Positions 5,585 through 64,000 of a stretch of DNA of 64,000 nucleotides are shown here, piece by piece. The position numbers and the translations under genes are program-made. How positions within the stretch are numbered: the stretch's first letter is position 1; every line of letters begins with the position of its first letter. Below the pieces are notes generated by a model. It was not told the origin of the DNA, ran no database searches, and was given only the letters and a program-made list of their open reading frames with translations. This stretch comes from a bacterium (GTDB taxonomy: Bacteria; Patescibacteriota; Minisyncoccia; Phycocordibacterales; Zambryskibacteraceae): the NCBI GenBank assembly GCA_030649135.1, contig JAUSGI010000006.1:43534-107533 (forward strand), given 5' to 3'.

Positions 5585-5590
5585 ATAATA

Positions 5591-10489: not shown

Positions 10490-10506
10490 TACAAAACAGT
10501 TGGCGG

Positions 10507-10543
10507 AATAGAAAAGGAAGTCGTAGAGTCACCTACGACTTCC
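10507..10543 (-). terminator. rho-independent terminator for minus-strand transcripts
   Basis: Perfect 11 bp stem ggaagtcgtag/ctacgacttcc with a 6 nt loop. On the minus strand it is followed by ttttctatt. Confidence 0.55.
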
Positions 10544-11556: not shown

Positions 11557-11657
11557 TTTTGTTATCCCCTCCTTAGTACGCCCCCATTTTACGATATAAT
11601 TATAGGCAGAAACGATCTTAGTTCTAAATAAAATCGTCGGAGAGAGGGAGGGTTACC

Positions 11658-12401
11658 ATGTACTATCAGCTTCTCTTGGTGTTCGGTGTCGCAATGCTCT
11701 TGTCACAAGTGGCCGTGCTCGCGACGACCATCCAACTGCATCGTGCCGCAACACATGCAACGCTTGGAGGGCTCGTCCTCGATCCGAAGGTTGCATGGGC
11801 ATGCAATCTCATCCTGTGGATTACCACTGGTCAGAGGAGGAGGCAGTGGGTGGCCGTGCACCGCAAGCACCACGTCTTCACAGACAAGGTGGGTGACCCG
11901 CACAGCCCACGCGTGCTCGGCTTCTGGCATGTCCAACTCGGCAACGTCTTTTACTATGTGTGGGCGCTGAGGGAGAAAGATATCCTGGACAAGTACGCTC
12001 CCGATATCCAGGAAGACAAGTGGGACCGGTGGCTCTTCAACCACGGCAAGCTTGGTCTCCTGCTAGGAACGGTAGCACTCTGCTCGCTCATGGGCATGTG
12101 GTGGGGACTGCTCACGGCACTAATTCATGCCGTGACATACATCTTCGTCATCGCCTCCTCCATCAACGGCCTGTGCCACACCTACGGCTACAGGAACTTC
12201 GATAACACAGCGACTAATCTGCGTCTCCTCGCGTGGATCACCGGAGGCGAAGGGTTGCACAACAACCATCACGAATACCCAACTCGTGCGAAGTTCAGTT
12301 TCTTCCCGGGCGAGTGGGACCCAGGGTGGTCGATCATCAAGCTTTTGATCAGAGTCAACCTGGCCACCATGAAGAAGACCCTTTGGACAGTCCCGAGGTA
12401 A
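11658..12401 (+). CDS. membrane fatty-acid (acyl-lipid/acyl-CoA delta-9-type) desaturase
   Basis: Three histidine boxes in order: HRAATH, HRKHH, HNNHH, with hydrophobic N-terminal helices. 247 aa. Local GC is clearly higher than the flanks. Confidence 0.75.
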   Translation: MYYQLLLVFGVAMLLSQVAVLATTIQLHRAATHATLGGLVLDPKVAWACNLILWITTGQRRRQWVAVHRKHHVFTDKVGDPHSPRVLGFWHVQLGNVFYYVWALREKDILDKYAPDIQEDKWDRWLFNHGKLGLLLGTVALCSLMGMWWGLLTALIHAVTYIFVIASSINGLCHTYGYRNFDNTATNLRLLAWITGGEGLHNNHHEYPTRAKFSFFPGEWDPGWSIIKLLIRVNLATMKKTLWTVPR

Positions 12402-12435
12402 GGATAACGGAAGGGCAAAACCTTCCTTCGACCCA

Positions 12436-12471
12436 ACCCTGGGCGCATAGCGCCCAGGGTTGTTTTCATTC
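12436..12471 (+). terminator. rho-independent terminator after the desaturase gene
   Basis: Perfect 12 bp stem aaccctgggcgc / gcgcccagggtt with loop ata, then gttttcatt. Confidence 0.7.
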
Positions 12472-12552
12472 ACCACCAAGAGTTGTGCACATTCTGTCAA
12501 CAGGATATCCACCAACTTATTCTGATGACATTGTTGTGTTAGAATCACTCAC

Positions 12553-13098
12553 ATGAAGAAAGTGGTAGTCATCTTGGTTATCATCGGGGCGGTTGCACTT
12601 ATATACACCATGCGCAATGGTTCTGCCACAACAAGTAACGTTCCGACAGTAAGCGATAAGGGTATCTTCCGTCCCGACCCGTCGGGCGCCACTTTCACCT
12701 TCGACGACGAATCGGTTACTCTGTCGGCAGGACGAAATGAAACAACCATTACCCCGGGAAGTGCGCTAGTAGAAGAAACAGCCTTGTTGGACCAATTTGC
12801 CTACGGGGATATCAATGCGGACGGCAAAGAGGACACCGTCCTACTTTTGGCCCGTTATGGTGGCGGTTCAGGAACATTTATATATTTGGCGGCCTTTGTT
12901 TCCGGGCCAGTCACTTACCGCGGGTCGGAGGCCACTTTTATCGGAGATCGAGTGTCTCCCCAATCTCTTTCTATAAATAAAGGCGTTGTGACCATACAAT
13001 ATTTAGACCGTAAAGCGGATGAATCTTTTGCTGCCGAGCCGACCGTGCCGGTATCAAAGCAATTTGTTTACAAAGCCGGAGGATTTGAAGAAAGATAG
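12553..13098 (+). CDS. hypothetical membrane-anchored or secreted protein
   Basis: N-terminal TM/signal MKKVVVILVIIGAVALIY; 181 aa. Confidence 0.5.
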   Translation: MKKVVVILVIIGAVALIYTMRNGSATTSNVPTVSDKGIFRPDPSGATFTFDDESVTLSAGRNETTITPGSALVEETALLDQFAYGDINADGKEDTVLLLARYGGGSGTFIYLAAFVSGPVTYRGSEATFIGDRVSPQSLSINKGVVTIQYLDRKADESFAAEPTVPVSKQFVYKAGGFEER

Positions 13099-13121
13099 AA
13101 AATGTGTTTTAATAGCCACTT

Positions 13122-14909
13122 ATGGAAATAAGGAATATAGCTATTATCGCGCACGTCGACCACGGTAAAACCACTCTTACCGACGCTTTGATGCGAGAGA
13201 CGGGAATGACGGGGGAGGGGGTAACGATGGACTCAAACGCTCTAGAACTGGAACGTGGTATTACCATTTATGCCAAAAATACCTCCATTTTTTACAAAGA
13301 TACGAAGATAAATATTGTCGATACTCCCGGCCACTCTGACTTCGGCTCGGAAGTGGAACGCGTCTTGCGCTCCATAGATACAGTCCTTCTGGTTGTAGAC
13401 GCGCAGGAGGGACCGATGCCTCAAACTCGTTTCGTTCTGAAGAAGTCACTCGAGCTCGGTTTGAAACCAATCGTAGTGATAAATAAAATTGATAAGCCGG
13501 CGGCCCGGCCGGAAGTGGCACATGAATTGGTGCTTGAACTCTTCCTGGAGCTGGGTGCCAACAATGAGCAGATTGAATTCCCCACCGTTTTCGCTATCGG
13601 TAGAGAAGGTGTTGCAAAGAAAAAGTTGACCGACGAATCAAAAGACCTAACCCCCCTACTCGATACTATTCTCGAACACGTGCCGCCCGCCGAGCAGAAA
13701 CTTGATGCACCTGCCCGTTTACAACCCTTTAACCTCGCTTACGATAATTTCCTCGGGCGTCTTGCTATCGCACGTATTTACGAAGGCACGTTGAAAAACG
13801 GCCAAAAAGTTTTTGTGAAAAAGCCGGATGGAGAAACTTACGCGGGAAAGATAAGCAAACTCTACACTTTCGAAGGCCTGAAAAGGAAAGAAGTTGCTGA
13901 AGCCGTGGCTGGAGATATTTGTATGCTCGCAGGACTGCCACAAATTTATATCGGTGACACTATCACGGCAAGCGAGGATACTCCGGCTCTGCCGGCTATT
14001 TCGGTCGATGAACCAACTATTTCTCTTAATCTTGTGGTAAACGATTCCCCTTTCGCCGGTCGTGTCGGTAAATTCGTCACCGGTCGCCAGATCCGTGAGC
14101 GCCTTGAACGCGAACTGGAAGTTAACGTTGGACTCAAGATAGATTTTTCCTCCAGTGAATTCATGACCGTCTACGGTCGGGGCGAACTTCATCTTGCTAT
14201 CCTTCTTGAGAATATGCGCCGCGAAGGATTCGAACTCCAAGTTTCGCAGCCGCATGTTTTGGAAAAAACAGAAAACGGCAACAGACTTGAACCCTTCGAA
14301 GAGGTGCTGATAGATGTGCCGGAACAAATGTCGAGTGCTGTTATCTCCAAGCTAACGGAGCGACGCGCCAGTCTTATGGATATGAAGACGGAAAATGGAC
14401 AGACTCGTATTACCTTTGAGGCGCCTACCCGCGGACTATTGGGGTATCGTAATCAATTTATTATTGATACTAAAGGTTTGGGCATTCTTTCCTCTCGCTT
14501 TACCGCGTTTAAACCATATGCCGGAGAGATGAAACATGAGAAGGGTGGCTCAATGATATCTATGGAGAACGGCAAAGCGCTCGCTTTCTCGCTCGATAAT
14601 CTACAAGACAGAGGGGTATTATATATCAAGCCAGCGGAGGAGGTATATGAAGGACAGGTTATCGGTAATACCTCAAAGGGTGAAGACCTTTATGTTAATC
14701 CAACTAAAGGTAAACAGCTCACCAACATGCGCGCTTCTGGTTCTGACGAAGGTATTTATCTGACCCCCGCTTACAAACTTGATATAGAACGAGCCATGGA
14801 GATTATGGGTGACGATGAATATATAGAAATTACTCCGGATGATGTCCGTCTCCGAAAAATCCTTCTGACACAACAGGCACGTTCAAAGGCTCAAAGAAAG
14901 ACTGTATAA
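13122..14909 (+). CDS. typA: translational GTPase TypA/BipA
   Basis: [24 protein letters not shown] (G1), DTPGHSDF (G3), NKIDK (G4). 595 aa, the typical BipA length and domain order. Confidence 0.9.
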
Positions 14910-14916
14910 TATCCCT

Positions 14917-15681
14917 ATGGCAAAACTTGATACGGGACCCTACAAAGGCGTCAGGGATTTTTATCCCGAAGATATGGCTATCGAGAACCATATCTTCAAA
15001 ACTTGGCGAGAAGTCGTCGAGAAAGCAGGATACCAAGAATATAGCGCTTCTATCCTTGAACCTACCGAAATTTATACCGAGAAATCGGGCGTAGAGATAA
15101 TCAATGAACAGACCTTCACTTTCACGGATAGAGGCGACCGGTCAGTTACTTTACGTCCAGAGATGACCCCTACTCTTGCACGCATGATTGCCGCGCGTCG
15201 TAGAAATTTGAAATTTCCCCTACGTTGGTACTCGATTCCCAACCTCTTTCGTTACGAACGTCCCCAGCGCGGCAGAAAGCGCGAACATTGGCAATTAAAT
15301 TGCGACCTCTTGGGTATCACCGGCATTGAGGCAGATATAGAAATTATCTCCCTTGCTTATAAAATTATGAAAGAATTTGGAGCCAAGGATGAAAATTTTG
15401 AAATCAGAATCAATAATTCCAATACAGACGACTTGAAAGAAATCGGGCCAAACATAGTCTACGACCCTACTTTGGCCAGAGGACAAACTTACTACACAGG
15501 AATAGTCTTTGAAATCTTTGATACTAACAAAGAAAACGGGCGTTCTATAGCCGGTGGCGGTCGATATGACAACCTCCTGGAAATATTTGAGGTAGATCCT
15601 ATACCGGCAGTTGGTTTCGGTATGGGCGATATAACCATTAACGACTTCCTCGAGACACATAAGTTAGGTCCTTATGCGTAA
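14917..15681 (+). CDS. histidyl-tRNA synthetase catalytic core without anticodon-binding domain (HisZ-like architecture)
   Basis: N-terminus MAKLDTGPYKGVRDFYPED; motif 2 FRYERPQRGRKREHWQLNCDLLG; motif 3 AGGGRYDNLLEIF...PAVGFGMG. Ends at 254 aa right after motif 3. Confidence 0.7.
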   Translation: MAKLDTGPYKGVRDFYPEDMAIENHIFKTWREVVEKAGYQEYSASILEPTEIYTEKSGVEIINEQTFTFTDRGDRSVTLRPEMTPTLARMIAARRRNLKFPLRWYSIPNLFRYERPQRGRKREHWQLNCDLLGITGIEADIEIISLAYKIMKEFGAKDENFEIRINNSNTDDLKEIGPNIVYDPTLARGQTYYTGIVFEIFDTNKENGRSIAGGGRYDNLLEIFEVDPIPAVGFGMGDITINDFLETHKLGPYA

Positions 15682-16249
15682 AATAGTTTTTGATATAGAA
15701 ACAAAAAACTTCTTCCAGGAGGTCGGTAAAAATGACCCATCCCTCTTGGACCTCTCCTTGGTTGCTATCTATGATTCCCTGACTGACTCGTATTCTTCGT
15801 ACTTGGAAGAAGAGCTGGGAAAACTCTGGCCGATACTCGAGCGGGCCGACATGCTCATTGGTTTTAATTCAGACCATTTCGACATTCCCCTACTTAATAA
15901 ATACTACCCGGGAGATTTGACAAAAATAAAGAGTCTAGATATTTTAAAAGAAATCAAAGACTCTTACGGACGCCGGATGCGCCTCGACCAGTTGGCGGAA
16001 GGAACACTTGGTAAAAATAAATCAGGCCACGGCGCAGATGCTACGGACTGGTGGAAGGCAGGCGATGTGGAAAGAGTCCGCGCCTATTGCCTAGATGACG
16101 TCAAACTCACTAAGGGACTCTACGACTACGCTCTTGCCAACAACAAACTTATATTCAAAGAAGGAGGTGCCCTCAATGAAATTAAACTGGACACTTCCGG
16201 ATGGGAAAAAGCCAACGACCACAAACTCACTTTCTCTCTGCCATTTTGA
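15674..16249 (+). CDS. DnaQ-like DEDD 3'-5' exonuclease
   Basis: Exo I FDIET, Exo II GFNSDHFDIPLL, and a C-terminal H...D/Y...D segment. Start overlaps the previous gene by 8 nt. Confidence 0.65.
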   Translation: MRKIVFDIETKNFFQEVGKNDPSLLDLSLVAIYDSLTDSYSSYLEEELGKLWPILERADMLIGFNSDHFDIPLLNKYYPGDLTKIKSLDILKEIKDSYGRRMRLDQLAEGTLGKNKSGHGADATDWWKAGDVERVRAYCLDDVKLTKGLYDYALANNKLIFKEGGALNEIKLDTSGWEKANDHKLTFSLPF

Positions 16250-16278
16250 ATGCTATAATATTTACTTAATAAAAAACG

Positions 16279-16965
16279 ATGGAATCAACACCACAAAATA
16301 AATACCTTATCCCTTTAGCTATCATAGCCGCGGGCGGTTTGGTCGCAGTCGCCATTTACTTCGGCGGTTCGACAAGCTCACCGCAAGCGGTCGTAAATAA
16401 TACAGGCCCAGAAATTGACCTCCCTCCTGTCACAGAGAAGGACCACATCATCGGCAGCAGGAACGCCGACTTGGTGATAGTCGAGTATTCAGATACCGAA
16501 TGTCCTTTTTGTAAAACCTTCCACAACACTATGAAAGAGGTGGTACAAACTTACGAGGGAAAAGTGGCCTGGGTTTACAGACATTTCCCAATCGTCCAAT
16601 TACATTCCAAGGCGCCTAAAGAGGCGGAAGCCACAGAGTGCGCAGCAGAACTCGGAGGTAATCAGATTTTTTGGGACTACATCGATAAACTTTTGGAAAC
16701 TACCAAATCCAACGACTCACTTAACCCAAGCGAGTTGCCGAAAATAGCAACATCTGTAGGGCTTGATGCGACTGCATTCACTACATGTCTCTCAAGCGGT
16801 AAATATACCGAATTGGTACAAAAGAGTGTGGAAGAAGCAATTAAGGCCGGCGCCCTGGGGACACCTTACTCCATTATCGTCACCAAAGATGGTCAAAAAA
16901 TAGTGATAAACGGAGCCGAACCGCTTAGAGACGTTAAGCTGAAAATTGACGCCCTGCTTAAGTAA
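16279..16965 (+). CDS. DsbA-like thiol:disulfide oxidoreductase, membrane-anchored
   Basis: N-terminal TM helix followed by a thioredoxin-fold CxxC active site (YSDTECPFCKTFH). Confidence 0.7.
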   Translation: MESTPQNKYLIPLAIIAAGGLVAVAIYFGGSTSSPQAVVNNTGPEIDLPPVTEKDHIIGSRNADLVIVEYSDTECPFCKTFHNTMKEVVQTYEGKVAWVYRHFPIVQLHSKAPKEAEATECAAELGGNQIFWDYIDKLLETTKSNDSLNPSELPKIATSVGLDATAFTTCLSSGKYTELVQKSVEEAIKAGALGTPYSIIVTKDGQKIVINGAEPLRDVKLKIDALLK

Positions 16966-16968
16966 CTT

Positions 16969-18510
16969 CTAAACTCTTTCTTCAAGATACTTGAGGATAG
17001 CATACATCGCATAAGTATCTAAGCCGCAGTATTCTCGAAGATCATCCATTATTTTCTCTTTCTTATCCGAGTCTTTCCCGCGTAAAACAGTTTGCATCCA
17101 GACACGTTGTGCTTGCCCGCCTTCGGAAATATTGAGCTTTTTATAACTGAATTCCGGGAGAAGCGCCGGCAAGACCGACTTTATTGAAGCCTTGCCGAAG
17201 AAGTCTTTATCTACAAACCACCCTTTGGAAAATGGAATCATCAGGTCAACCATCCTTTCATTGACTCCCGCCAGAAACTTTTCATATTTGGGATGCATTT
17301 TCCCCATCTCTGTGTTTCTAGCTTTTTCAAAAGTCATGTACCAGGAAATGACAGAGCCTTTGGCATCCCGCCTGCTAGCGCCTGAGCTTAGCGATGGCGG
17401 GCAGGCAAAATCATTTTGGAGGTGTTCCAGGAGGGCCGGCACCGGGTCGGAATTATCCGTGTGCAAATACTCCTTCTGTCTCAGTTCCCCACCCGGTTTA
17501 TCCAGAATATGCAGAGAATATTGGAAAGGCACTTGCTGATATGGCCGATAACCATCAAAGGCCGGTATCACGCTTGCAAGAGTCTCATAATCCAAAAAAT
17601 ATAATGGGTACTCTAAATCGTTGAGAAAGGCTTTAATCTCTTCCTTGTTTATATGTTGTGTCCCGGACTTCATGGCTTCGACTTGCCGCAATTGTTTTTC
17701 CGTAAGAGGCCCATCAAGCGGAATGTCATCGAGAAGTTCTATGCCATTGTCTTCGAGCCACGCAATAGTCTTTACATCGGGACCGGCGAGTTTATAGATG
17801 CTGTACTTAGGAAACTCTCCTTTTATAGCTTGTACAATACTAAGCCACTCTTCTATCACGCCTGCATTCTGTTTGAGATGGCGCGGGGAGAGGTCAGGCA
17901 TCTTCTTTTCTTTCAATATCTCAAATGCTTTTTGGATATTCTCTTTTGTTTCCTCAATTATTTCTCGTACTTCCTCGGTCACATCTGTTTTTTCAGAAAT
18001 CAGAGCGGGATCAATCTCGCCCTGTCTTACATATTTATTATTGACATGCAGGACAAACATCTTGCGCACAGAAAGTCCCGCGCTCTCTAAAACGATAGTC
18101 TGGAACGCAAGGTCTGGGATATGTTCAGGTTTGACGCTGGTGGAAGATTTTATTTCGTAAAGGTCATAAGTTTTATCACCTGTTTTTTCCAAGACATCGA
18201 AAATAGAAGTAATATTATCGGCCTCTACCCTACCTTGTAGTATTACTTCCGTTCCCTTCTCAATTTCCTTAGCTGTAAGCTCCGGCAGAGCATAATACTT
18301 AGTGCCGCTGAATTCATTATCATTCTTGTAACCAAGCTTAGCCGCTTTAGGGAAAAGTTTTTCGGCATACTGTTCGAATAGAGACCCTTCGTCGAAAAGT
18401 GCCTGTAGACCCTCGTCCGGCACCGGCAACTTTTCTTTATCGAATTTCTTAAGCCACAACCACGCCGGGTGCTTCAGAAACATCATGAATTCTGATTTGG
18501 AGATAACCAT
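16969..18510 (-). CDS. protein with N-terminal PD-(D/E)xK-like and C-terminal DEDDy-like nuclease motifs (possibly DUF2779-like)
   Basis: N-terminal D...DLYEIKSST (D, ExK pattern). C-terminal YFLDYETL (DxE) and CGLDTYAMYAI (Yx3D). 513 aa. Confidence 0.5.
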   Translation of the reverse strand: MVISKSEFMMFLKHPAWLWLKKFDKEKLPVPDEGLQALFDEGSLFEQYAEKLFPKAAKLGYKNDNEFSGTKYYALPELTAKEIEKGTEVILQGRVEADNITSIFDVLEKTGDKTYDLYEIKSSTSVKPEHIPDLAFQTIVLESAGLSVRKMFVLHVNNKYVRQGEIDPALISEKTDVTEEVREIIEETKENIQKAFEILKEKKMPDLSPRHLKQNAGVIEEWLSIVQAIKGEFPKYSIYKLAGPDVKTIAWLEDNGIELLDDIPLDGPLTEKQLRQVEAMKSGTQHINKEEIKAFLNDLEYPLYFLDYETLASVIPAFDGYRPYQQVPFQYSLHILDKPGGELRQKEYLHTDNSDPVPALLEHLQNDFACPPSLSSGASRRDAKGSVISWYMTFEKARNTEMGKMHPKYEKFLAGVNERMVDLMIPFSKGWFVDKDFFGKASIKSVLPALLPEFSYKKLNISEGGQAQRVWMQTVLRGKDSDKKEKIMDDLREYCGLDTYAMYAILKYLEERV

Positions 18511-18511
18511 T

Positions 18512-19720
18512 CTAATACCCCCTTAGCCTGTTTATTTTTTCGTGCTGGCGGATTTTTTCGTGGGCTTTGGCTTCTATTTGGCGAATACGTTCACGAGTGA
18601 CGCCGAAAACTTTTCCCACTTCTTCGAGCGTGTGAGTATAACCGTCGACCAGCCCATGACGCATCTCCAAAATTTTCCTTTCCTTAGGAGGTAAGTCACC
18701 CAAGATTTCTTTCACCTGGTCAGAAACAATACGCCGTGAGGAGTCCTGGTCCGGGGACAGAATCTTGTCATCGGCCAAGAAATCCCCAAGCTTGCTCTTA
18801 TCGTCTTCGCCGTCATTGCCCACCGGACTCTCAAGTGATACCGTGGACTGGTCAATTTTTTCGATCTGATAAATTTTCTCAACATCCAAATTCATCTCCA
18901 GAGCAATTTCTTCCTGTAGCGGGTCTCGGCCGAGGTCCTGCGTCAGGCGCCTAACTACTTGTTTATATTTGGCGATAGTCTCCACCATGTGCACCGGTAC
19001 GCGGATAGTGCGAGACTGGTCTGCCAGAGCACGAGTGATGGCCTGTCTAATCCACCATGTCGCATAGGTTGAAAATTTAAATCCTTTGGTCCAGTCAAAC
19101 TTCTCTACCGCCTTATGCAACCCCAAATTTCCTTCCTGAATAAGGTCAAGCAGAGTAAGATCGGGACTACGATTGGCGTATTTTTTGGCAATTGAGACCA
19201 CCAGACGGAGATTGGCTTTCATTAAGAGGTTCTTGGCGTCCTCGTCTCCGCCTTCGATTCTTTTGGCCAGCTCTTTTTCCATCGCACCGGCAATGAGAGG
19301 ATACTGGCCGATTTCCCTAAGATACATTTGAATGGAATCGTAGGATGAGTCACCTCTTGAGTAGGCGTAGTGCTTACCGGTTTCTGCTTCCGGCATTTCC
19401 AACAACCCTCCCCCTTCAAGAATATCGACACCCATGACATGCAACTTTTCATACAACTCATCCAGAAACACAATATTGGTCTCAATATTCGGAAACTCTT
19501 TCAAAATTTCATCGTAGGTGACAAAACCACGGTCTTTGCCGCGCGAGATAAGACGTCCCATCTTGGAGGCCTCCTCCATGTTCTTTTTAGATATGGGCCT
19601 GGCTTTCGCTTTGCGCTTCTTTTTCGTCTTATGAGTCTTGGAGGCAACAGACCTTTTGTTGGGCTGTTTTTTACTCACCTTTTTGGATTTCTTAATTTTA
19701 TGTTTTTTATTTTTTTTCAT
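18512..19720 (-). CDS. rpoD: RNA polymerase sigma-70 factor RpoD
   Basis: Region 2 DLIQEGNLGLHKAVEKFD and YATWWIRQAITRA, plus region 4 HTH. Lysine-rich basic N-terminal tail of about 45 aa. Confidence 0.9.
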   Translation of the reverse strand: MKKNKKHKIKKSKKVSKKQPNKRSVASKTHKTKKKRKAKARPISKKNMEEASKMGRLISRGKDRGFVTYDEILKEFPNIETNIVFLDELYEKLHVMGVDILEGGGLLEMPEAETGKHYAYSRGDSSYDSIQMYLREIGQYPLIAGAMEKELAKRIEGGDEDAKNLLMKANLRLVVSIAKKYANRSPDLTLLDLIQEGNLGLHKAVEKFDWTKGFKFSTYATWWIRQAITRALADQSRTIRVPVHMVETIAKYKQVVRRLTQDLGRDPLQEEIALEMNLDVEKIYQIEKIDQSTVSLESPVGNDGEDDKSKLGDFLADDKILSPDQDSSRRIVSDQVKEILGDLPPKERKILEMRHGLVDGYTHTLEEVGKVFGVTRERIRQIEAKAHEKIRQHEKINRLRGY

Positions 19721-36700: not shown

Positions 36701-36776
36701 TGGAGCCGGAGGCGAGATTCGAACTCGCGACTTACCCCTTACGAAGGGGTTACTCTACCAACTGAGTTACTCCGGC
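36701..36776 (-). tRNA. tRNA-Thr (anticodon CGU), CCA encoded
   Basis: Manual cloverleaf: GCCGGAG/CTCCGGC acceptor, D-loop AGTTGGTA, anticodon loop TTCGTAA, T-loop TTCGAAT, then TCCA. Confidence 0.85.
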
Positions 36777-36826
36777 TTACTGCTCTACTTCACCCCGCCT
36801 AGCCCGGGCGGGGCAAGCTGAGCTAA
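36777..36826. repeat. about 50 bp element immediately 5' of tRNA-Thr(CGU), copy A
   Basis: ttactgctctacttcaccccgcctagcccgggcggggcaagctgagcta shares about 85% identity with 36940..36990 and contains the hairpin ccccgcc/ggcgggg. Confidence 0.6.
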
Positions 36827-36863
36827 GGTGGCACTACTTCGCCTAGGCTACGAAGTGCGAAGC

Positions 36864-36939
36864 TGGAGCCAGAGGGGAGAATCGGACTCCCGACCTCTTT
36901 CTTACCATGAAAGCGTTCTACCACTGAACTACTCTGGCT
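36864..36939 (-). tRNA. tRNA-Thr (anticodon GGU), CCA encoded
   Basis: Manual cloverleaf: GCCAGAG/CTCTGGC acceptor, D-loop AGTGGTA, anticodon loop ATGGTAA, T-stem GGGAG/CTCCC, T-loop TCCGATT. Confidence 0.8.
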
Positions 36940-38259: not shown

Positions 38260-38333
38260 CGCGGTCAACCGGACTTGAACCGGCAACCTCTCCCGTGACA
38301 GGGGAGTGCTCTAACCAGTTGAGCTATGACCGC
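38260..38333 (-). tRNA. tRNA-Asp (anticodon GUC)
   Basis: GCGGTCA/TGACCGC acceptor, anticodon loop CTGTCAC, T-loop TTCAAGT, discriminator G. CCA not encoded. Confidence 0.85.
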
Positions 38334-38375
38334 AATGGATTACAAATTAGCAGATTTTCGCCACTAATTCAATTG

Positions 38376-38446
38376 TGCCGGTGAATGGAATCGGACCATT
38401 GTTTGAGGCTTATGAGTCCTCTGTTCTGCCATTGAACTACACCGGC
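38376..38446 (-). tRNA. tRNA-Met (anticodon CAU; initiator, elongator or Ile2/lysidine not distinguishable)
   Basis: GCCGGTG/CACCGGC acceptor, short D-loop AATGGCA, anticodon loop CTCATAA with an A-G at the 31-39 pair, T-loop TCCGATT. 71 nt, no CCA. Confidence 0.65.
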
Positions 38447-57216: not shown

Positions 57217-57834
57217 CTAACGAGGATTAATATACTTCTGATAATGTGGATCATCCTTACTCATGTGTTTAGCAATGATGTCTCTGATAAATTCTGATTT
57301 GTTCATTTTGTAGTAAAAACTCGCCCAATCTAAATAATTTTCTATTGCTTTACTGAATATAATATTGAATTTAACAGTAGGGCTAGCGCTTTTGCTTAGA
57401 AAATGTGCAAGTATTCGCTTAATATCTTCTTTACTAGAATATCTTGCTATGGTGAGAAGTGGTGATTTTATTCCATTTATAAAAGAGTTTTGTAGTTTAT
57501 TCTTCTTGTCTGACCCGTCATTATAAAGAAGTACCAGTACCGGCTTATTTTTACTTAAGGCCAAAGTCATTTGATGTCCAATGCTAAAACTTGATACCGT
57601 TCCTTCTATTATAACGACGTCCGACGCCAATATAGACTCGATGGCTTTATTGTAGATTGCTACTCTGTCGATTTTGATTTTCCCCTTTTTATAGTCGCCC
57701 AAAGTTGCAACGGCGTTATCAATCCAATCCCTTGTTATGGTATGGCCCGTATCCCTAACAAGATTACATATATCCACGTAATTTTTGCCATATACCTCTA
57801 GCTCAGAAGTAGAGCATGCAAAATGTATCTTCAT
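57217..57834 (-). CDS. Rcl/nucleoside 2-deoxyribosyltransferase-fold domain fused to a C-terminal ribbon-helix-helix-like domain
   Basis: KIHFACS (compare KIYFxGS) and SDVVIIEGTVSSFSIGHQMTLALSKNKPVLVL (compare Rcl ADVVVAEVTQPSLGVGYELGRAVAFNKRILCL). The expected catalytic Glu aligns to Gln. C-terminal KFNIIFSKAIENYLDWASFYYKMNKSEFIRDIIAKHMSK has a beta-alpha-alpha RHH pattern. Confidence 0.45.
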   Translation of the reverse strand: MKIHFACSTSELEVYGKNYVDICNLVRDTGHTITRDWIDNAVATLGDYKKGKIKIDRVAIYNKAIESILASDVVIIEGTVSSFSIGHQMTLALSKNKPVLVLLYNDGSDKKNKLQNSFINGIKSPLLTIARYSSKEDIKRILAHFLSKSASPTVKFNIIFSKAIENYLDWASFYYKMNKSEFIRDIIAKHMSKDDPHYQKYINPR

Positions 57835-57884
57835 AGGTATAACGATACTATAATTTGCGTATTTTGTAAATGTCTCATTTCTAC

Positions 57885-57923
57885 TTGACTTCTATGTATG
57901 GCATATGTAAATATGTATGGTAT
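57885..57923 (+). promoter_or_regulatory. promoter TTGACT(17)TAAATA overlapped by a tandem direct repeat (putative operator)
   Basis: TTGACT at 57885..57890 and TAAATA at 57908..57913. Repeats TATGTATGGCATA (57893..57905) and TATGTATGGTATA (57911..57923), 18 bp period, overlap the spacer and the -10. Confidence 0.4.
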
Positions 57924-57962
57924 ACATACAACATTACAAATATCACAAATCGCCAACTAATT

Positions 57963-58718
57963 ATGTACACAAAAATTGAACCATTTGGATATGCTGTGTA
58001 CGGCGAATTAATTGGAAGCACATGGCTAAGTCTTGTCGAGGCTGTGGTTAAAAATGGCCAAATAACAACGGACGAGGGTAGAAAAAGATACTCTCTTCAA
58101 AATATACGAGTAAGATCAGCCACTTCGGCTAGAACAGATCCGCTAATAGCTAAATATGCAAACCAGCAAAATATTGCGGAGATAGTGAAACTCACTTTTA
58201 ACAAAGATCTTATGTATGACATAGACGTAACTCCGTCATTTACTCCTGGGGCGCAAAGTTATTACGCCAGAATTAAAAATTGGAAAATGCTTGATTTCAT
58301 TGTGGGCAGGCTCACAGAAATACCGGAATCAAAAAAGGCGGTAATGTCTTTTATCAGAGAGGAAGATTATATTAAGGTTTTAAAAAACCCAAAAGATGAC
58401 TATTTGCCATGCATTACAACCATACAGTTTAGATTATTAAAAATAGATAATGAAAAAGGGTACCATATGAATATCATTTTTAGTGCCAGATCTATGGATG
58501 CCTACCAAAAATCTATCGGTAACTTGGTAGCCATTGCCATACTGGGGGAAGAAGTGGCAAAACGACTGAAAAAAAATCTGGGGGTTCCCGTCTGGGAAGG
58601 AAGCATCGATGGACTAATAACTGATGCGCATATTTACGACAACACAATAGACGAAGCCAGAAAACTATTAGAATCCTACAAAAAAATAGAGAGCAATGAG
58701 TCACATGAAAAAGCGTAA
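57963..58718 (+). CDS. thymidylate synthase (ThyA)-fold enzyme, divergent (thymidylate synthase or a pyrimidine-deoxynucleotide hydroxymethylase)
   Basis: Aligns to ThyA blocks: YLPCITTIQFRL (compare LAPCHAFFQFYV, catalytic Cys kept, His replaced by Ile); IFSARSMDAYQKSIGNLVAIAIL (compare [21 protein letters not shown]); ITDAHIYDNTIDEA (compare GDTHLYSNHMDQT). N-terminal folate/dUMP-binding blocks are poorly conserved. 252 aa from ATG 57963. Confidence 0.65.
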   Translation: MYTKIEPFGYAVYGELIGSTWLSLVEAVVKNGQITTDEGRKRYSLQNIRVRSATSARTDPLIAKYANQQNIAEIVKLTFNKDLMYDIDVTPSFTPGAQSYYARIKNWKMLDFIVGRLTEIPESKKAVMSFIREEDYIKVLKNPKDDYLPCITTIQFRLLKIDNEKGYHMNIIFSARSMDAYQKSIGNLVAIAILGEEVAKRLKKNLGVPVWEGSIDGLITDAHIYDNTIDEARKLLESYKKIESNESHEKA

Positions 58719-59283
58719 GAAAGTAGTAGTATTTGAAGGAATTGATGGTTCGGGAAAATCGACCCAAGCTCGCTTGCTATATTTTGCTCTTAAAAAAAGA
58801 AATATTTCTGCAGACTTATACCACTTCCCATCGGAGGGTATCATAGGAAAATTTGTTAGGAGTCTTTTGGAGAAGGAAGAATTTGACACTTTGGATTCAA
58901 AATCCCGTGCACTACTTACTGCTTCAGACTTTTACAGCCAATATCACAGGAGCAATAATGATTCGGATATGATTATATTTGACAGATATTTTCATTCCAG
59001 TTATGCATCTAACGATGCCTTAGACGAAGAGTGGATTAAGGCAATACATCAATATGCGCCAGACCCGGATATTGTTTTCTTTTTGGACGGAGAACCGAAA
59101 TCAATCAAAGAAAGGGATGGCATTGATTCCGGTGCAAAAAATGAAGCGAGGCAAAAAATGCTCAGCATTAGATATAAAAAGATATTTGAGAATATACCCA
59201 ATATCACCATCAATGCCAACAAAGATATTGAAACAACGCATCAAGAGGTGCTACAGACCGTTATTAAAAAATTAAATATATGA
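58696..59283 (+). CDS. tmk: thymidylate kinase-family (d)NMP kinase
   Basis: P-loop VVFEGIDGSGKST; FPSEG...IGKFVRSLL (compare TREPGGT...LAEKLRSLL); DRY motif IFDRYFHSSYA; LID-like region. Overlaps the upstream gene by 23 nt. Confidence 0.8.
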   Translation: MSHMKKRKKVVVFEGIDGSGKSTQARLLYFALKKRNISADLYHFPSEGIIGKFVRSLLEKEEFDTLDSKSRALLTASDFYSQYHRSNNDSDMIIFDRYFHSSYASNDALDEEWIKAIHQYAPDPDIVFFLDGEPKSIKERDGIDSGAKNEARQKMLSIRYKKIFENIPNITINANKDIETTHQEVLQTVIKKLNI

Positions 59284-60161
59284 TAAACATAGAAGGAGAA
59301 CTAAAAATGGAAGACAAGGTAAATGAGGACATGGATTTATTAAAATCCCTTGATGACTTGTTTACTGTAAAAAGAGGCTTTGTGATAAAAATGCCGCCAA
59401 AGGGAGAATCGGTAGCTGCTTGTTTATCTGGTGGTATGGACTCGGTTACCAATATAGCAATGCTCATGAAAGAATATGGTTTAAAAGTGTATCCATTTTT
59501 TATTAACAGGGGACAATCCAATTATGTTTACGAAAAAAAGGCGGCCGATTATTTTAATTCCTTTTTTAAAGAAAAGTTTCCCGACCTATACAATGATTAT
59601 CTTGAAATTACAGTAATGACTCCCGGGGAAGAATATAAAGACTTGCTTCGCGATGCCAAGAGGCTGGTTGACCCCTTACCATTGCGCCACAATGTATCTT
59701 ACCCATCAAGAAACCCTATAATATTCTTAACAGGGATGGAGTATGCTTATTCCTTAAAAGCAAAGGGGGTTGAAATTAAAACAATGTTCGCATCTTATGT
59801 CTCTTCCGACTCATCTTATCACTGTGGTTTAACAAATACTCGTTTGATGAATGTGCTGATGTGTCAGATACTAAACGATTGGAATTGGCAATTTATTTCC
59901 ATCCCAATAGAGCGCGAACTGGGAAACTTTTTCGACAAAGACGTGTATGTCAAATGGGGTTACGAGAACAATATTCCCCTCCACTTTTCAAGGACATGCG
60001 TTAAACACTTTGATGTCGAGTGCGGAGACTGCCCGACCTGCTGGGACAGAAGAAGGGGTTATAAAGAAGCCGGTATTGATGATCCGACCCCATATAAATA
60101 TGAGATGTCCTCAGAATTCCCAACCTATTACGACCATGAAAAAGAAGAGCAGATGCAATAA
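59280..60161 (+). CDS. QueC-family PP-loop ATP pyrophosphatase with about 45 aa N-terminal extension
   Basis: PP-loop LSGGMDSVT; FINRGQS (compare FDYGQR); PSRNPIIFLTGMEYAYS (compare PGRNILFLTLASIYAYQ); C-terminal Zn motif CGDCPTCWDRRRG (compare CGxCxxCxxR). Start overlaps the tmk stop (ATGA). Confidence 0.7.
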   Translation: MINIEGELKMEDKVNEDMDLLKSLDDLFTVKRGFVIKMPPKGESVAACLSGGMDSVTNIAMLMKEYGLKVYPFFINRGQSNYVYEKKAADYFNSFFKEKFPDLYNDYLEITVMTPGEEYKDLLRDAKRLVDPLPLRHNVSYPSRNPIIFLTGMEYAYSLKAKGVEIKTMFASYVSSDSSYHCGLTNTRLMNVLMCQILNDWNWQFISIPIERELGNFFDKDVYVKWGYENNIPLHFSRTCVKHFDVECGDCPTCWDRRRGYKEAGIDDPTPYKYEMSSEFPTYYDHEKEEQMQ

Positions 60162-60165
60162 TAAT

Positions 60166-60729
60166 ATGAAAATAGAAACAGAAATTAAATTAGCAATAGA
60201 AGAATCCTCAATAAAAGACGTCATTGCTAGAATCGAACAAGAGTTCGATTGTAAAAAATCTGACCCTTTCCTCCAGACTACGCATCAATTCTTTTTCGAA
60301 GATCATACAAAACAAAAGGCCTTCCCAAGAATCCGTAACGAAGAGAACGGGAGCATTACTTTAACTGTAAAAGCCAAACTAAAAGAAACTAGTGAATTCT
60401 TTAAACGAATAGAGTTGGAAACGACTATTACTAATGCCGAGAAGGTTATCGACATGATGCCATTTTTTGGCTTCCCTAAAAAAATCTCCTGGGAGAAAAA
60501 GCGTCATTCTTTTTTAATGAACGGCGATACTGATGTATGTTTTTTCCTGGATGAGACTCCTATGGGTTGGTTTTTAGAAATTGAGGCGGAGGAAAGTAAA
60601 ATAGAAGAAGCTATTACTAAACTTGGACTACAAGAAGCCCAAAGAATTAATGGGGCTTATCTGGGTCTATGGGAGAAATATAAAAAAGAGCACAATATTT
60701 CTAGGGATAATATGATGTTTGGTGCGTAG
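60166..60729 (+). CDS. CYTH-domain (triphosphate tunnel metalloenzyme) protein
   Basis: N-terminal ExExK signature (MKIETEIKL) and an alternating charged beta-strand pattern. 187 aa from ATG 60166, 4 nt after the QueC-like stop. The track's longer ORF 59947..60729 overlaps the previous gene. Confidence 0.55.
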   Translation: MKIETEIKLAIEESSIKDVIARIEQEFDCKKSDPFLQTTHQFFFEDHTKQKAFPRIRNEENGSITLTVKAKLKETSEFFKRIELETTITNAEKVIDMMPFFGFPKKISWEKKRHSFLMNGDTDVCFFLDETPMGWFLEIEAEESKIEEAITKLGLQEAQRINGAYLGLWEKYKKEHNISRDNMMFGA

Positions 60730-61990: not shown

Positions 61991-62116
61991 CCCTAAATTA
62001 TACTCCTAAGTTAATGTGTGGGCGGTGATCTCGGGTTAAGTGCCTCACGAGTGAGGCTTTGTAAGCGTATTCTAGCATCTTTAGAATCTCTAGATTGAGG
62101 TACTCGGGTCGGGGGT

Positions 62117-62386
62117 CTAATTTTTGCGATAGAGAAAATATTGGACGAGCGTTATGCCCCACATAATAATTCCCACTGCAAAGGAAACCGATGGTAGATA
62201 GGCACCAGTTGCAAGAAAGAAAGCGATTTGCGAAGCATAGAAACCAAGAGCAATAAGTATGGTGAGGATGGGTTGCCCCGAGCGTCTCTCGCGATAATTT
62301 TTTACTATTTGAGCAGGAATTCCGATAAGCACCAAAGCGAGTGAAAAAATACTAACCAAAATACTAAGAGTAAATACTATGTCCAT
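62117..62386 (-). CDS. small 3-TM membrane protein (PQ-loop/SemiSWEET-like?)
   Basis: 89 aa; GIPAQIVKNYRERRSGQ after TM1 resembles a PQ-loop motif. Confidence 0.35.
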   Translation of the reverse strand: MDIVFTLSILVSIFSLALVLIGIPAQIVKNYRERRSGQPILTILIALGFYASQIAFFLATGAYLPSVSFAVGIIMWGITLVQYFLYRKN

Positions 62387-62609
62387 ATATCTATTATATC
62401 TTTTGGCGGTGACGATGTCCGGAAGTTTGAACCGAAAACATGGCTCAAATTCAAGGATATTGATGAAAGTATACGTGAATTAAGGGCAATCTACAAAGTT
62501 CATCCCCAATGGTTTGAAGTACCAAAGCCAAAGTCAGATAAGGGACGAAATGCAGTAGATTATTCTGTCTAGCTTAAAATATGCAGGCTACTCAGGTTGG
62601 TTCACTATT

Positions 62610-63605
62610 CTATTCTGCGGTAAACATTGTATATGGCCCCGATTCGCTAATAGATATACCGCGGGACTTTCTATGGTCTTTATAATTGAAGTTCTTTGTC
62701 AGCTTTTCCAAGTGTATCTTATCCTTTGCTATTGCACATTGGTGGCTATTTGAGAGTATCAATGAATTTATATTCCTGACCTGTCCCTTATCCAATTTCA
62801 TGTAATACTCTGCTTTTGATTTCATGCTCGGTTTTATGTAAAGACAGATATCTGGTCTCAAAGGAAAATATACCGTTGAGTGAGGAGATAAAAGACCATT
62901 AAATTTTGATGTCGATACTGTAAAACAAGGACTATCTGAAGTGATGAAAGAACTACCTTCAGGAGCTACAAGAAATAACCATTGCATTTCAAATATCTTC
63001 TCGGCGTGTCGATCTACTTTGAGAAGGCCTTTTGAGTGACCTGTCTTTGTAAGACCGATTCTGACCGTATCACCATGTATCGCCTCAAAAATCTGCGAGT
63101 TTATTTCTTCCTGCGTCATTTTACTTATCACATCCAGAGCATCACTCTCCATTTTATTCTGTGGGTTATGTTCGAGTATTTTCTCTTTGGACATATGCAC
63201 CTTATCTGGTGATGGAAGGTCTTTTCTCATAAAATGTCGGGTAGTGGCTTCGATCAATTTGTTTGTTTCCTCTCTGTGTCGCGGGGTTCTTGTGTACTGC
63301 AATGCCGTATAAAAAGCCACACAACTCCTGTCCATACCTGATAATAATTCTTCGCTTGCAGTATTTATTTTCCTGATAACTTCAATACCCTTTGTATCAA
63401 TAATTGCTGTAATTTCCTCTGGGAGGTAGGACTTCTCACCGTCATCTTCAAGGACATTAAAATCATCTCTCCAAAAACCCTTCCATCCCGGTCCTCTTTC
63501 TATAATCTGGTTTTCTTCAATAACATAAATATTGAGCTGATTTTCTGTTCCGCTTTTTCTCCATTGAGTAAGATATTTGTCTTGAACGATGTGATGCTTT
63601 GCCAT
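62610..63605 (-). CDS. DUF4238-like protein
   Basis: N-terminus MAKHHIVQDKYLTQW matches the HH(I/V)PQ.YL..W start I recall for DUF4238 family members. 331 aa. No other recognised motif. Confidence 0.4.
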   Translation of the reverse strand: MAKHHIVQDKYLTQWRKSGTENQLNIYVIEENQIIERGPGWKGFWRDDFNVLEDDGEKSYLPEEITAIIDTKGIEVIRKINTASEELLSGMDRSCVAFYTALQYTRTPRHREETNKLIEATTRHFMRKDLPSPDKVHMSKEKILEHNPQNKMESDALDVISKMTQEEINSQIFEAIHGDTVRIGLTKTGHSKGLLKVDRHAEKIFEMQWLFLVAPEGSSFITSDSPCFTVSTSKFNGLLSPHSTVYFPLRPDICLYIKPSMKSKAEYYMKLDKGQVRNINSLILSNSHQCAIAKDKIHLEKLTKNFNYKDHRKSRGISISESGPYTMFTAE

Positions 63606-63661
63606 GACCTTGTGGATAACTTTATTTGTATACTTTCTATTTATTTTCTATACTAACATAT

Positions 63662-64000
63662 ATGCTTACAAAAAAACAAACACAAGTCCTCGATTTTATA
63701 AAAATATATATGGTAAAGCACAGCTACGCCCCCTCCCTAGAGGAGATCAAGCGCAAATTTAAGCTTGCTTCTGTTTCTACCGCCCATTATTATTTAAAAA
63801 AACTACAAGAAGCCGGGCAACTCAAAAAGGAATTTAATCAGCCGCGCGCTGTTTCTACAATAGAGGCAAAACAAACCATCGAAATTCCCATTCTGGGAGC
63901 AATAGCTGCTGGACAACCGATTGAGGCGATAGAAATTCCAGACGAAACTATCACGATTACAAGAGATGAAATTGGAAAGCAGGGCAAACACTATGCTTTG
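63662..64000 (+). CDS. lexA: LexA repressor, N-terminal part (continues beyond window end)
   Basis: Manual translation MLTKKQTQVLDFIKIYMVKHSYAPSLEEIKRKFKLASVSTAHYYLKKLQEAGQLKK is the LexA winged-helix DNA-binding domain. Not in the ORF track because it is edge-truncated. Confidence 0.7.
   Translation, partial: MLTKKQTQVLDFIKIYMVKHSYAPSLEEIKRKFKLASVSTAHYYLKKLQEAGQLKKEFNQPRAVSTIEAKQTIEIPILGAIAAGQPIEAIEIPDETITITRDEIGKQGKHYAL

Follow-up and report, generated by a model that had tools for sequence, protein, structure and literature searches.

Enzymes of the QueC family were long held to serve 7-deazaguanine synthesis only, and two defence systems (2025–26) redeploy the scaffold. QueC acts on a carboxylate or amide and uses free ammonia, and GMP synthase acts on a ring carbonyl. 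Among described systems that modify nucleotides, phage T4 uses a set of gp56 dCTPase, gp42 dCMP hydroxymethylase and gp1 dNMP kinase, and phage SPO1 a dUMP hydroxymethylase set. In the Z-genome phages, which carry 2-aminoadenine and the PurZ/MazZ/DatZ proteins, a pyrophosphatase gives the dNMP, a synthetase swaps a ring-carbonyl oxygen for nitrogen and kinases return the product. Mildiomycin and bacimethrin synthesis (MilA/MilB and BcmA/BcmB, respectively) pairs a thymidylate synthase (TS)-like CMP hydroxymethylase with an NDT-like N-glycosidase. Here we analyse 64,000 nucleotides of a Patescibacteria genome (GenBank assembly GCA_030649135.1, contig JAUSGI010000006.1, positions 43,534–107,533; hereafter the window), in which genes for a QueC-like and a CYTH protein form the distal half of a four-gene operon headed by a TS-like gene and a nucleotide kinase gene.

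A sequence-only reading had marked the QueC-like and CYTH genes (59280–60729) as a stand-alone pair, possibly repurposed for Dpd-type DNA modification or for defence. The pair is real, but that interval leaves out the two upstream genes of the operon, and the pair does not stand alone: its strictest partner is the upstream TS-like gene, and nucleotide kinases accompany it as well. These partners move the interpretation from 7-deazaguanine to pyrimidine-nucleotide chemistry, and in our best reading the operon acts on the deoxypyrimidine nucleotide pool rather than on 7-deazaguanine. We propose, at a probability of roughly 40%, that the QueC-like enzyme is the nucleotide-modifying partner of the TS-like enzyme in a mobile pyrimidine pathway, the product of which would probably enter DNA.

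The operon and its relatives

The gene content of the window is of the Patescibacteria (candidate phyla radiation, CPR) type and includes rpoB/rpoC, gatA/gatC, ligA and a type IV pilus cluster. The operon lies on the forward strand and encodes, in order, a divergent TS-like enzyme of 251 amino acids (57963–58718; assigned by Pfam TS, an AlphaFold2 (AF2) model and alignment with ThyA), a dTMP-kinase-like P-loop kinase (58696–59283; Pfam Thymidylate_kin and TIGR00041), a QueC-family PP-loop ATP pyrophosphatase of 293 amino acids with a Zn–Cys4 site (59280–60161; Pfam PF06508 and an AF2 model), and a CYTH protein, or triphosphate tunnel metalloenzyme (TTM), of 187 amino acids (60166–60729; Pfam CYTH and tunnel residues). 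The TS-like and kinase genes overlap by 23 nt and the kinase and QueC-like genes by 4 nt. As had been read from the sequence, 4 nt separate the last two genes, the QueC-like stop codon TAA (60159–60161) being followed by TAAT and then by the CYTH ATG at 60166. Together with a divergently transcribed NDT-like gene, the four genes make up a 3.5-kb island of low GC content (36.7%). Each of the five genes has 35–39% GC and a GC content at third codon positions (GC3) of ∼0.35, whereas the flanking comF-like, pilM and rarA genes have 48–51% GC and a GC3 of 0.52–0.57, which marks the island as acquired. The QueC-like and CYTH genes thus close an operon that was acquired horizontally.

A word-indexed search returned 131 relatives of the QueC-like protein (best E=1e-182), all of them metagenomic or from Patescibacteria metagenome-assembled genomes. 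Among 185,579 species-representative genomes 28 loci were found; apart from one in Woesearchaeota and two on short contigs binned as Gammaproteobacteria, these belong to Patescibacteria classes. Metagenomes added 80 more loci, and 78 remained after dereplication at 95% identity. Co-occurrence was counted from our own open reading frame (ORF) calls and jackhmmer assignments, and the 35 loci in which 3 kb or more is available on each side of the cassette were treated as well flanked. The TS-like gene lies directly upstream of the QueC-like gene in 58 of 66 evaluable loci and within 4 kb in 64, the two exceptions having truncated QueC-like genes. Directly downstream stands a CYTH gene in 55/75 loci, an adjacency that the sequence-only reading had proposed to check and that is thus conserved, and a Ham1 gene in 6/75. 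In the well-flanked loci the TS-like gene is found in 33/35, CYTH in 25/35 and any NTP pyrophosphatase (CYTH, Ham1 or NUDIX) in 29/35. A thymidylate kinase (TMK)-like or AAA_17-type kinase was detected in 16/35, an undercount since a further, deoxynucleoside kinase (dNK)-like family also turned up; a second CYTH-like family appeared among the neighbours as well. Three proteins are fusions, two of QueC-like with Ham1 (P0070 and P0241) and one of TS-like with TMK-like (P0144). With homologues down to E=1e-182 and gene order kept in dozens of loci, conservation of the cassette is far beyond chance.

The linkage was also seen from other starting points. A search from the TS-like side led to a marine Parcubacteria contig in which TS-like, QueC-like and CYTH genes overlap, beside genes for TraC-like and PrgI components of a type IV secretion system (T4SS). 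Upstream of the gene for a much more divergent QueC-like protein (P0245 in locus L041, which scores 267 bits against the family profile), and overlapping it, lies a TS-like gene that had escaped Pfam. The absence of queuosine partner genes noted in the sequence-only reading holds for the window, where E. coli queries for queD/E/F/A, folE and tgt (phmmer, six frames) gave nothing above 9 bits, and extends to 121 related loci (1.18 Mb), in which the same queries found no homologue at E≤0.01. Neighbour clustering showed no transporter, methyltransferase or glycosyltransferase that recurs with the cassette, nor any recurrent effector gene such as one for a nuclease. The accessory genes of variant loci all encode deoxynucleotide enzymes (dCTP-deaminase-like, NDT-like, PfkB and dNK/TMK-like).

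One copy is carried by a virus. The IMG/VR contig 3300033149_002467 (41.8 kb, identical to Ga0366834_1002567; L037/L038) consists of unidirectional small ORFs and encodes an exonuclease (phrog_298), YopX, HNH, DUF5681, a large terminase (phrog_2) and an M23 peptidase, with the TS-like, QueC-like and CYTH genes at 8113–10214, flanked by recombination genes on one side and packaging genes on the other. The contig presumably comes from a phage that infects Patescibacteria; within 1–19694 it also encodes a full-length GroEL-type chaperonin (523 amino acids) and a sulfotransferase-like protein. Cultured phages showed only canonical QueC (23–27% identity) and distant TS, and a scan of IMG/VR with TS-like patterns gave no match, the scan being insensitive, since L037 does encode a TS-like protein and yet was missed. 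T4SS or conjugation genes stand beside the cassette in two unrelated lineages (a T4SS pilin in L005–L007; TraC-like and PrgI in L130–L132), and other neighbours include an integrase, an IS605-type TnpB and a HicA toxin, all of which is consistent with carriage on mobile elements.

Several loci depart from the common layout. In Candidatus Collierbacteria (L036, LCIE01000014.1, ∼6200–13300) a variant cluster encodes two QueC-like paralogues and a short TS-like protein whose specificity residue is the cytosine-type Asp, together with an AAA_17-type kinase, a dCTP-deaminase-like protein, Ham1, an NDT-like homologue of the 205-residue protein of the window followed by a PfkB kinase, and a NUDIX protein. 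L032 and L034 have a second, shorter QueC-like paralogue (∼247 amino acids) with the same R-G-Q motif. The TS-like/QueC-like pair of L041 (1357–2950) is without CYTH and adjoins, on the opposite strand, an apparent phosphonate cluster (PEP mutase, TPP-dependent decarboxylase, aminotransferase, nucleotidyltransferases and HAD hydrolase). Convergent to the cassette in L067 (11877–13184, minus strand) is a 435-residue ORF that joins a TS-fold domain, with Ser for the catalytic Cys and Asp at the specificity position, to an AAA_17-type kinase; the TS-fold part may serve the kinase as a module that binds nucleotides, or may belong to a gene in decay. L058, L073 and L074 hold decayed TS remnants only, upstream of the kinase. 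A general fusion of TS-like with kinases of the F3 family, suggested by neighbour clustering, was set aside because it goes back to these remnants and the one odd ORF of L067. A 7TM-HisKA histidine kinase (∼535 amino acids) occurs at most 6 kb from the cassette in 13/78 loci (for example L001, 10819–12423), in varying position and orientation, and in seven loci lacking a downstream CYTH gene the QueC-like gene is followed by a convergent gene for a protein of ∼770 amino acids with a Cys-rich motif that by eye looks radical-SAM-like. Both may reflect conserved synteny or be extra partners.

The QueC-like enzyme and its partners

The QueC-like protein scores 41.8 bits against PF06508 (cut-off 22). 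It reaches only 27.8 bits against the QueC equivalog TIGR00364 (cut-off 150.3) and 20.4 bits, over residues 245–290 only, against the QatC model NF041925 (cut-off 280), and E. coli QueC as a query finds it at 11.2 bits. The four QueC motifs listed in the sequence-only reading are indeed present, as SGGMDS (50–55), G78-Q79, P142-S-R144-N145 and C240...C248-G-D-C251-P-T-C254-W-D-R257, with C240, C248, C251 and C254 invariant in 29 family members, but the substrate-side signature of canonical QueC is absent. The N-terminal extension is real, at ∼40 rather than ∼45 residues, with the PP-loop starting at residue 50 versus 11 in E. coli QueC; it is a conserved feature of this family (E16, D17, R32 and P39) and includes a confidently modelled helix (18–32). 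The AF2 model has the QueC fold (predicted local distance difference test score, pLDDT, 91.9), and its top Foldseek matches are QueC (3bl5, E=2.6e-7), 2pg3 and Cap9 (9nto, E=7e-7); further PP-loop enzymes, among them GMP synthase, TtuA and YcfA, rank behind these. Among solved structures the sequence profile comes closest to Cap9 (chain 9nto_B, 41 bits, versus 19.8 bits for QueC); single-sequence searches of the PDB gave mostly spurious antibody light-chain matches for the QueC-like protein and nothing useful for the TS-like one.

A 2026 study of PF06508 defined the signature of canonical QueC, in which Y35 belongs to YxQxHxxE and Y131 and D133 to YPDC, and showed that Y35, R99, Y131 and Y189 are each essential in E. 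coli QueC (PMC13329287). When the family was aligned with E. coli QueC by MAFFT, three of the four proved to be replaced: Y35 by an invariant R77, Y189 by V241, and Y131 by Ser or a gap. R99 (R144), K165 (K220) and the Cys4 zinc site are kept. The YPDC motif reads S-Y-H181-C with an invariant His, and a 12-residue insertion, in which D200 and Q204 are invariant, has no counterpart in E. coli QueC. In the structure of Cap9 with CdnD, D117 holds the deazaguanine by a hydrogen bond and Y115 and R86 stack on it (bioRxiv 10.1101/2025.04.06.647259), and it is D117 that aligns to the invariant His181. With the ATP-side and structural residues kept and the deazaguanine-side residues replaced, the ATP side of the enzyme is conserved and the base side rebuilt. 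Further invariant arginines (R77, R188 and R238) would suit a phosphorylated substrate; C195 is also invariant and C48 nearly so. The family motif R-x-Q-x5-E has the Q-x5-E spacing of the Y/FxQ(x)5E variant reported for Cap9 (PMC13329287).

An exhaustive profile search placed the family in a larger N-extended QueC-like clade (220 representatives at E≤1e-30), no member of which reaches the QueC or QatC cut-off. Some of these wider relatives carry or adjoin PqqD domains, and they occur in glycan or ABC-transporter contexts without a TS-like gene; linkage to TS-like is therefore specific to the branch described here. Relatives at 160–300 bits were considered as a guide to function and discarded, their neighbours (PqqD, NTP_transf_5, Wzy_C and ABC transporters, without TS-like) not being transferable. 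Distant N-extended proteins of 300–430 amino acids (P0285 and P0249 in L044/L046, and P0294) have PqqD, NTP_transf_5, ScmC-like, Wzy_C and rhodanese neighbours, and one has a PqqD-like C-terminal domain, which suggests a large uncharacterized clade that modifies peptides or glycans.

The TS-like protein scores 31.4 bits against Pfam TS (PF00303, cut-off 24.3) and falls far short of the ThyA equivalogs (TIGR03283, 46.6 bits, cut-off 174.55; NF002495, 36.8 bits, cut-off 327), and by profile it reaches 13 bits against the PDB. The mechanically called ORF starts at 57870, 31 codons before the homologue-supported start, Met32 (57963); the homologue P0121, of 251 amino acids, is 100% identical over all 251, and the extra codons are probably not translated. 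The residues that define the superfamily, the Cys nucleophile, Arg-Ser-x-Asp, Asn and His-x-Tyr, are all in place: Tyr100, Cys150, Arg176/Ser177/Asp179, Asn187 and Asp221/His223/Tyr225 correspond to Y94, C146, R166/S167/D169, N177 and D205/H207/Y209 of E. coli ThyA. R126/R127 of ThyA are K124/K125, the folate wall L172-G173 has become an invariant Q182-K183, the W80/W83 region has no alignable counterpart, and the protein stops ∼40 residues before the ThyA C-terminus. The AF2 model matches TS (Foldseek E∼7e-12), with its best TM-scores (0.63–0.66) to the CMP hydroxymethylase MilA. An Asn at the specificity position selects uracil and an Asp cytosine, as N177D in TS and D179N in T4 dCMP hydroxymethylase swap the preference. 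Since Asn187 is invariant in 29 aligned family members, the substrate is likely a uracil nucleotide, and given the His-x-Tyr contacts to deoxyribose it is probably dUMP. The absent C-terminal tail and remodelled folate site leave the cofactor side open and suggest a hydroxymethylase-like enzyme that transfers a hydroxymethyl rather than a methyl group, a choice that sequence alone does not decide.

The kinase scores 92.2 bits against Pfam Thymidylate_kin and 91.0 against TIGR00041 (cut-off 83.25); its P-loop (G18xG20K21), DRY motif (D96-R97-Y98) and R140 are conserved in the cassette homologues. The CYTH protein (28.7 bits, cut-off 23.2) has the ExExK motif that had been read in its N-terminus, MKIETEIKL. 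Among 61 CYTH proteins of the cassette, each of the paired acidic and basic tunnel residues (E4, E6, K8, R55, K69, R81, E83, K111, R113, D129, E138 and E140) shows a conservation of 90% or more, and the enzyme is predicted to be active. Its nearest solved relative is the archaeal TTM Saci_0718 (E=7e-5). Because Ham1 takes the place of CYTH at some loci, including the fusions, the activity that they share would be NTP pyrophosphohydrolysis. Phage CYTH and MazG proteins have been proposed by the Aravind group to degrade unmodified NTPs in the manner of dUTPase (PMC7824862).

The fifth gene of the island encodes a protein of 205 amino acids (57217–57834, minus strand; 35% GC) and is separated from the operon by an AT-rich divergent intergenic region (57835–57962) in which a candidate promoter resembling TTGACT...TAAATA can be read, as can a short palindrome, GTATGgtataCATAC. 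Promoter and terminator consensus scans near the cassette did no better than shuffled expectation, and an Rfam search there gave no family match and no riboswitch. The 205-residue protein has no Pfam match; its homologue in L036 (phmmer E=4e-28) scores 25.2 bits against PF05014 (Nuc_deoxyrib_tr), under the cut-off of 28.8. By eye it appears to combine an NDT-like domain, with Gln for Glu at the nucleophile position, and a C-terminal segment of ribbon-helix-helix type, and it is possibly a ligand-sensing regulator. With NDT-like genes in only 3/35 well-flanked loci, it is peripheral to the cassette. Just past rarA (62000–64000) lies a second low-GC stretch (39%), in which a minus-strand ORF (62610–63605) encodes a DUF4238 protein of 331 amino acids (Pfam, 102 bits); this may be another acquired element beside the cassette. 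Elsewhere in the window two pairs of tRNA genes on the minus strand (36704–36938 and 38260–38446, ∼1.5 kb apart) have near-identical Rfam scores (69.8/63.6 and 69.8/64.3 bits) and may be a local duplication.

A proposed pyrimidine route and its alternatives

The family assignments, the catalytic residues kept, the lost QueC substrate signature, the gene linkage, the fusions, the island and the phage copy are observations; in what order the enzymes act, which atom the QueC-like enzyme attacks, with which nucleophile, what is made and where it goes are inferred. An NTP pyrophosphatase, CYTH here and elsewhere Ham1 (sometimes fused to the QueC-like enzyme) or NUDIX, would first convert a (d)NTP into the (d)NMP, supplying the substrate, removing the canonical competitor, or both. 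The conserved Cys of the TS-like enzyme would then attack C6 of a uracil nucleotide and a one-carbon group, hydroxymethyl rather than methyl, would be placed on C5. In a third step the QueC-like enzyme would spend ATP on adenylating one of the oxygens of that nucleotide, which ammonia or another nucleophile would replace to give an amino- or amido-type pyrimidine; as a first guess the C4 carbonyl would be attacked, yielding a 5-substituted dCMP. Finally, the kinase would re-phosphorylate the product for entry into DNA, where its likely role would be that of a non-canonical base that protects the carrier DNA, of Patescibacteria or their phages, from nucleases. Since the oxygens that PP-loop enzymes adenylate are those of carboxylates or carbonyls, and since QueC uses ammonia, adenylation and amination of a ring carbonyl is the most economical choice for the third step. 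Thiolation (C195, C48) and amide-forming ligation are possible variants, and synthesis of a hydroxymethylpyrimidine (HMP) or thiamine analogue, or C5 carboxylation followed by amide or nitrile formation, would likewise be variants of the same explanation only. Candidate nucleotides include 5-(hydroxy)methylcytosine made from dUMP, by C5 transfer and then PP-loop amination, and 2- or 4-amino, thio or amido pyrimidines. That the TS-like/QueC-like pair makes a new-to-nature pyrimidine deoxynucleotide which replaces a canonical base in Patescibacteria or phage DNA is a bolder claim, which we regard as rather doubtful.

A number of points weigh against this proposal. The thymidylate-type kinases and the TS-like/TMK-like fusion fit a thymine-type product, which weakens the guess of C4 amination; C2-directed or other chemistry would leave the N3–H/O4 face intact and would fit the kinases better. 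Kinases were detected in about half of the well-flanked loci, and only 1 of 78 loci is clearly viral. Confidence in the model of the TS-like protein is only moderate (pLDDT 75.5), and the segments on its folate side came out poorly. Among the wider relatives, those closest to the QueC-like protein stand in PqqD contexts resembling those of ribosomally synthesized and post-translationally modified peptides and in glycan contexts, which hints at peptide substrates. Ham1 normally prefers deaminated purine NTPs. To our knowledge, neither a modified base nor any biochemical datum has been reported for organisms that bear the cassette. A kinase that passes TIGR00041, a dUMP-type Asn and a dUTPase-like activity could also amount to the ordinary route from dUTP to dTDP, in which case the QueC-like enzyme may do something unrelated.

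This last point leads to the alternative that survives best, although we judge it unlikely: a nucleotide economy, in which deaminated or surplus nucleotides are salvaged by organisms, and their phages, that lack de novo synthesis. CYTH, Ham1 and NUDIX would hydrolyse dUTP, dITP and XTP to monophosphates, the TS-like enzyme and the kinase would make dTDP, and the QueC-like enzyme would use ATP and ammonia to re-aminate a deaminated nucleotide (XMP to GMP, as GMP synthase does, or dUMP to dCMP). The kinase score and the full set of core TS residues with the dUMP-type Asn suit such a scheme, as does the structural ranking, in which GMP synthase ATP-pyrophosphatase domains come next after QueC and Cap9. 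House-cleaning is the classical role of Ham1 and NUDIX, Ham1 being fused to QueC-like proteins, and thymidylate synthases are common auxiliary genes of phages. Salvage fits less well with the sporadic distribution (28 loci in 185,579 species representatives), and the low GC content and the T4SS, IS605 TnpB, integrase and phage neighbours suit an accessory trait better. It also leaves the strict translational coupling of TS-like and QueC-like unexplained if the two act on different nucleotides, and the tail-less TS-like protein is far from functional TS models. If salvage is nonetheless correct, the cassette would show how pools are rebalanced in organisms without de novo nucleotide synthesis.

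We give little credence to two further accounts. The cassette might make a small molecule, a pyrimidine antimetabolite or nucleoside into which the QueC-like enzyme installs an amide, amine or nitrile. The best structural matches of the TS-like model are to MilA, NDT-like proteins are encoded in the window and in L036, there with the PfkB kinase gene next, and QueC homologues make nitriles in toyocamycin-type pathways. NDT-like proteins are, however, confined to 3/35 loci and by eye seem to lack the catalytic Glu, and the recurrent transporters, methyltransferases and glycosyltransferases that were looked for did not appear. The minimal set with its kinases resembles nucleotide re-phosphorylation rather than release of a free base, and one copy is carried by a phage. 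Equally improbable in our view is conjugation to a protein or peptide, as by Cap9 and QatC, in which the QueC-like enzyme would adenylate a carboxylate and ligate it to an amine of a partner such as the TS-like protein, as part of a switch in defence or regulation. By profile no solved structure is closer than that of Cap9, the Q-x5-E spacing matches a variant reported for Cap9, wider relatives carry or adjoin PqqD peptide-binding domains, and the tight gene overlaps would suit a complex with the TS-like protein. The acyl donor of Cap9 and QatC is 7-carboxy-7-deazaguanine (CDG), but the Tyr and Asp that bind deazaguanine are replaced in the QueC-like family, and neither preQ0-pathway nor TGT-family genes were found near any of the 121 loci. 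No nuclease or effector recurs, the TS-like protein begins with Met-Tyr rather than with the processed Gly of the Cap9/QatC systems, and the fusion partner is a nucleotide pyrophosphatase.

Less probable still is defence through the nucleotide pool, by depletion of dNTPs or by a toxic or chain-terminating nucleotide on infection. Defences of this general kind include dCTP deaminase–kinase proteins and viperins paired with kinases. The island character, the HicA, AbiEii-like and DUF4238 neighbours in some loci and in the window, and the dCTP-deaminase-like gene of L036 are in keeping with defence. The cassette has no sensor or effector domain, PADLOC gave only generic matches (QueC at 46 bits and kinases at ≤29 bits) with no system assigned, and carriage in a phage replication module puts it on the opposite side of the conflict. 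The Dpd and defence analogies of the sequence-only reading are thus not supported, given also the low score against the QatC model and the lack of a Tgt homologue in the flanks. That the protein is an ordinary QueC (preQ0 synthase) with partners elsewhere in the genome is scarcely credible and was rejected, because, in spite of the PF06508 score, the intact PP-loop and zinc site and the public annotation of its homologues, the HMM scores and the essential and base-reading residues contradict it, no que, folE or tgt gene lies in 121 loci and the strict linkage is to TS-like instead.

Novelty and comparison with known systems

Public records label the QueC-like proteins ‘7-cyano-7-deazaguanine synthase' and the TS-like proteins ‘thymidylate synthase'. 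The first label is very likely wrong for the family and the second doubtful, and ∼130 database proteins carrying the former and their neighbours carrying the latter are probably misannotated, whether the pathway proposed here or salvage is correct. The full-text literature searched holds no description of the cassette. In the PF06508 survey the words ‘thymidylate', ‘CYTH' and ‘Patescibacteria' are absent and the QueC-like group is unmentioned (PMC13329287). If the proposal of a pyrimidine-modifying pair is true, this is a third and chemically different redeployment of the QueC scaffold, the first member of the QueC family with a pyrimidine nucleotide as its substrate, and perhaps also the first case of pathway-level base replacement in a cellular lineage. 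Were the product to enter DNA, it would be a new natural DNA base made by a new enzymatic route, that of a TS fold plus a PP-loop. The proposal would then have consequences for restriction evasion, for sequencing and methylation calling in CPR metagenomes and for the enzymatic synthesis of modified nucleotides, in the setting of the least understood bacterial radiation and one of its phages.

Compared with canonical QueC, the cassette enzyme shares the fold, SGGxDS, the essential Arg of PxRN, the conserved Lys and the Cys4 site. It differs in its N-terminal extension, the 12-residue insertion, the replacement of Y35, Y131 and Y189 and the His in place of the Asp of YPDC, and it is never found beside queD or queE in the window or the 121 loci, adjoining TS-like instead. 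Cap9, of the type IV cyclic oligonucleotide-based antiphage signalling system (CBASS), and QatC, of QatABCD, set a precedent in that the QueC fold, PP-loop and zinc site are kept and the role is changed; QatC has an N-terminal extension as well, and Cap9 is the best PDB sequence match and has the same Q-x5-E spacing. Cap9 is nevertheless ∼185 amino acids long, has Y/FxQ(x)5E and YxDC motifs and works with a CD-NTase and the TGT-like Cap10, and QatC has ∼400 amino acids and stands with qatA, qatB and qatD, whereas the 293-residue QueC-like protein reads Y-H-C, has Arg77 and His181 at the deazaguanine-binding Tyr and Asp positions, and stands beside the TS-like, kinase and CYTH genes, its partners being nucleotide enzymes. 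No TGT-family gene lies near any locus, CD-NTase, QatA/B/D and DpdB not having been searched for individually. DpdC would be expected with DpdA and DpdB, and a search of the window and the loci with E. coli Tgt as a proxy query gave no homologue of the TGT family.

The pathways that act on the nucleotide pool come closer in their partners. The cassette resembles the T4 and SPO1 modules in clustering three activities, those of an NTP pyrophosphatase, of a C5 transferase with TS fold and catalytic Cys, and of a dNMP kinase, and one copy lies in a phage replication module. Unlike them, it adds a QueC-family enzyme, tied more tightly to TS-like than are the kinase or the pyrophosphatase, its pyrophosphatase is of CYTH/Ham1 rather than dCTPase/dUTPase type, it resides mostly in cellular Patescibacteria genomes, and its TS-like protein has no significant match to T4 gp42 (12.5 bits, E=0.61, dCMP hydroxymethylase chain 6l18_A). 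In the MilA/MilB and BcmA/BcmB pathways the TS-fold enzyme MilA is the closest by TM-score, and both the window and L036 have an NDT-like gene next to the operon. The cassette TS-like enzyme, however, has the uracil-type Asn and not the cytosine-type Asp, the NDT-like protein is rare and probably inactive, and those pathways are without kinases, NTP pyrophosphatases or a QueC-like enzyme. PurZ/MazZ/DatZ offer a conceptual parallel to the steps proposed for the cassette, although they belong to unrelated families (adenylosuccinate-synthetase fold, MazG and HD), act on purines and lack a TS-like enzyme. As far as we have found, the combination of genes in the cassette is undescribed, and it brings together two known themes, the repurposing of the QueC scaffold and the modification of bases in the nucleotide pool.

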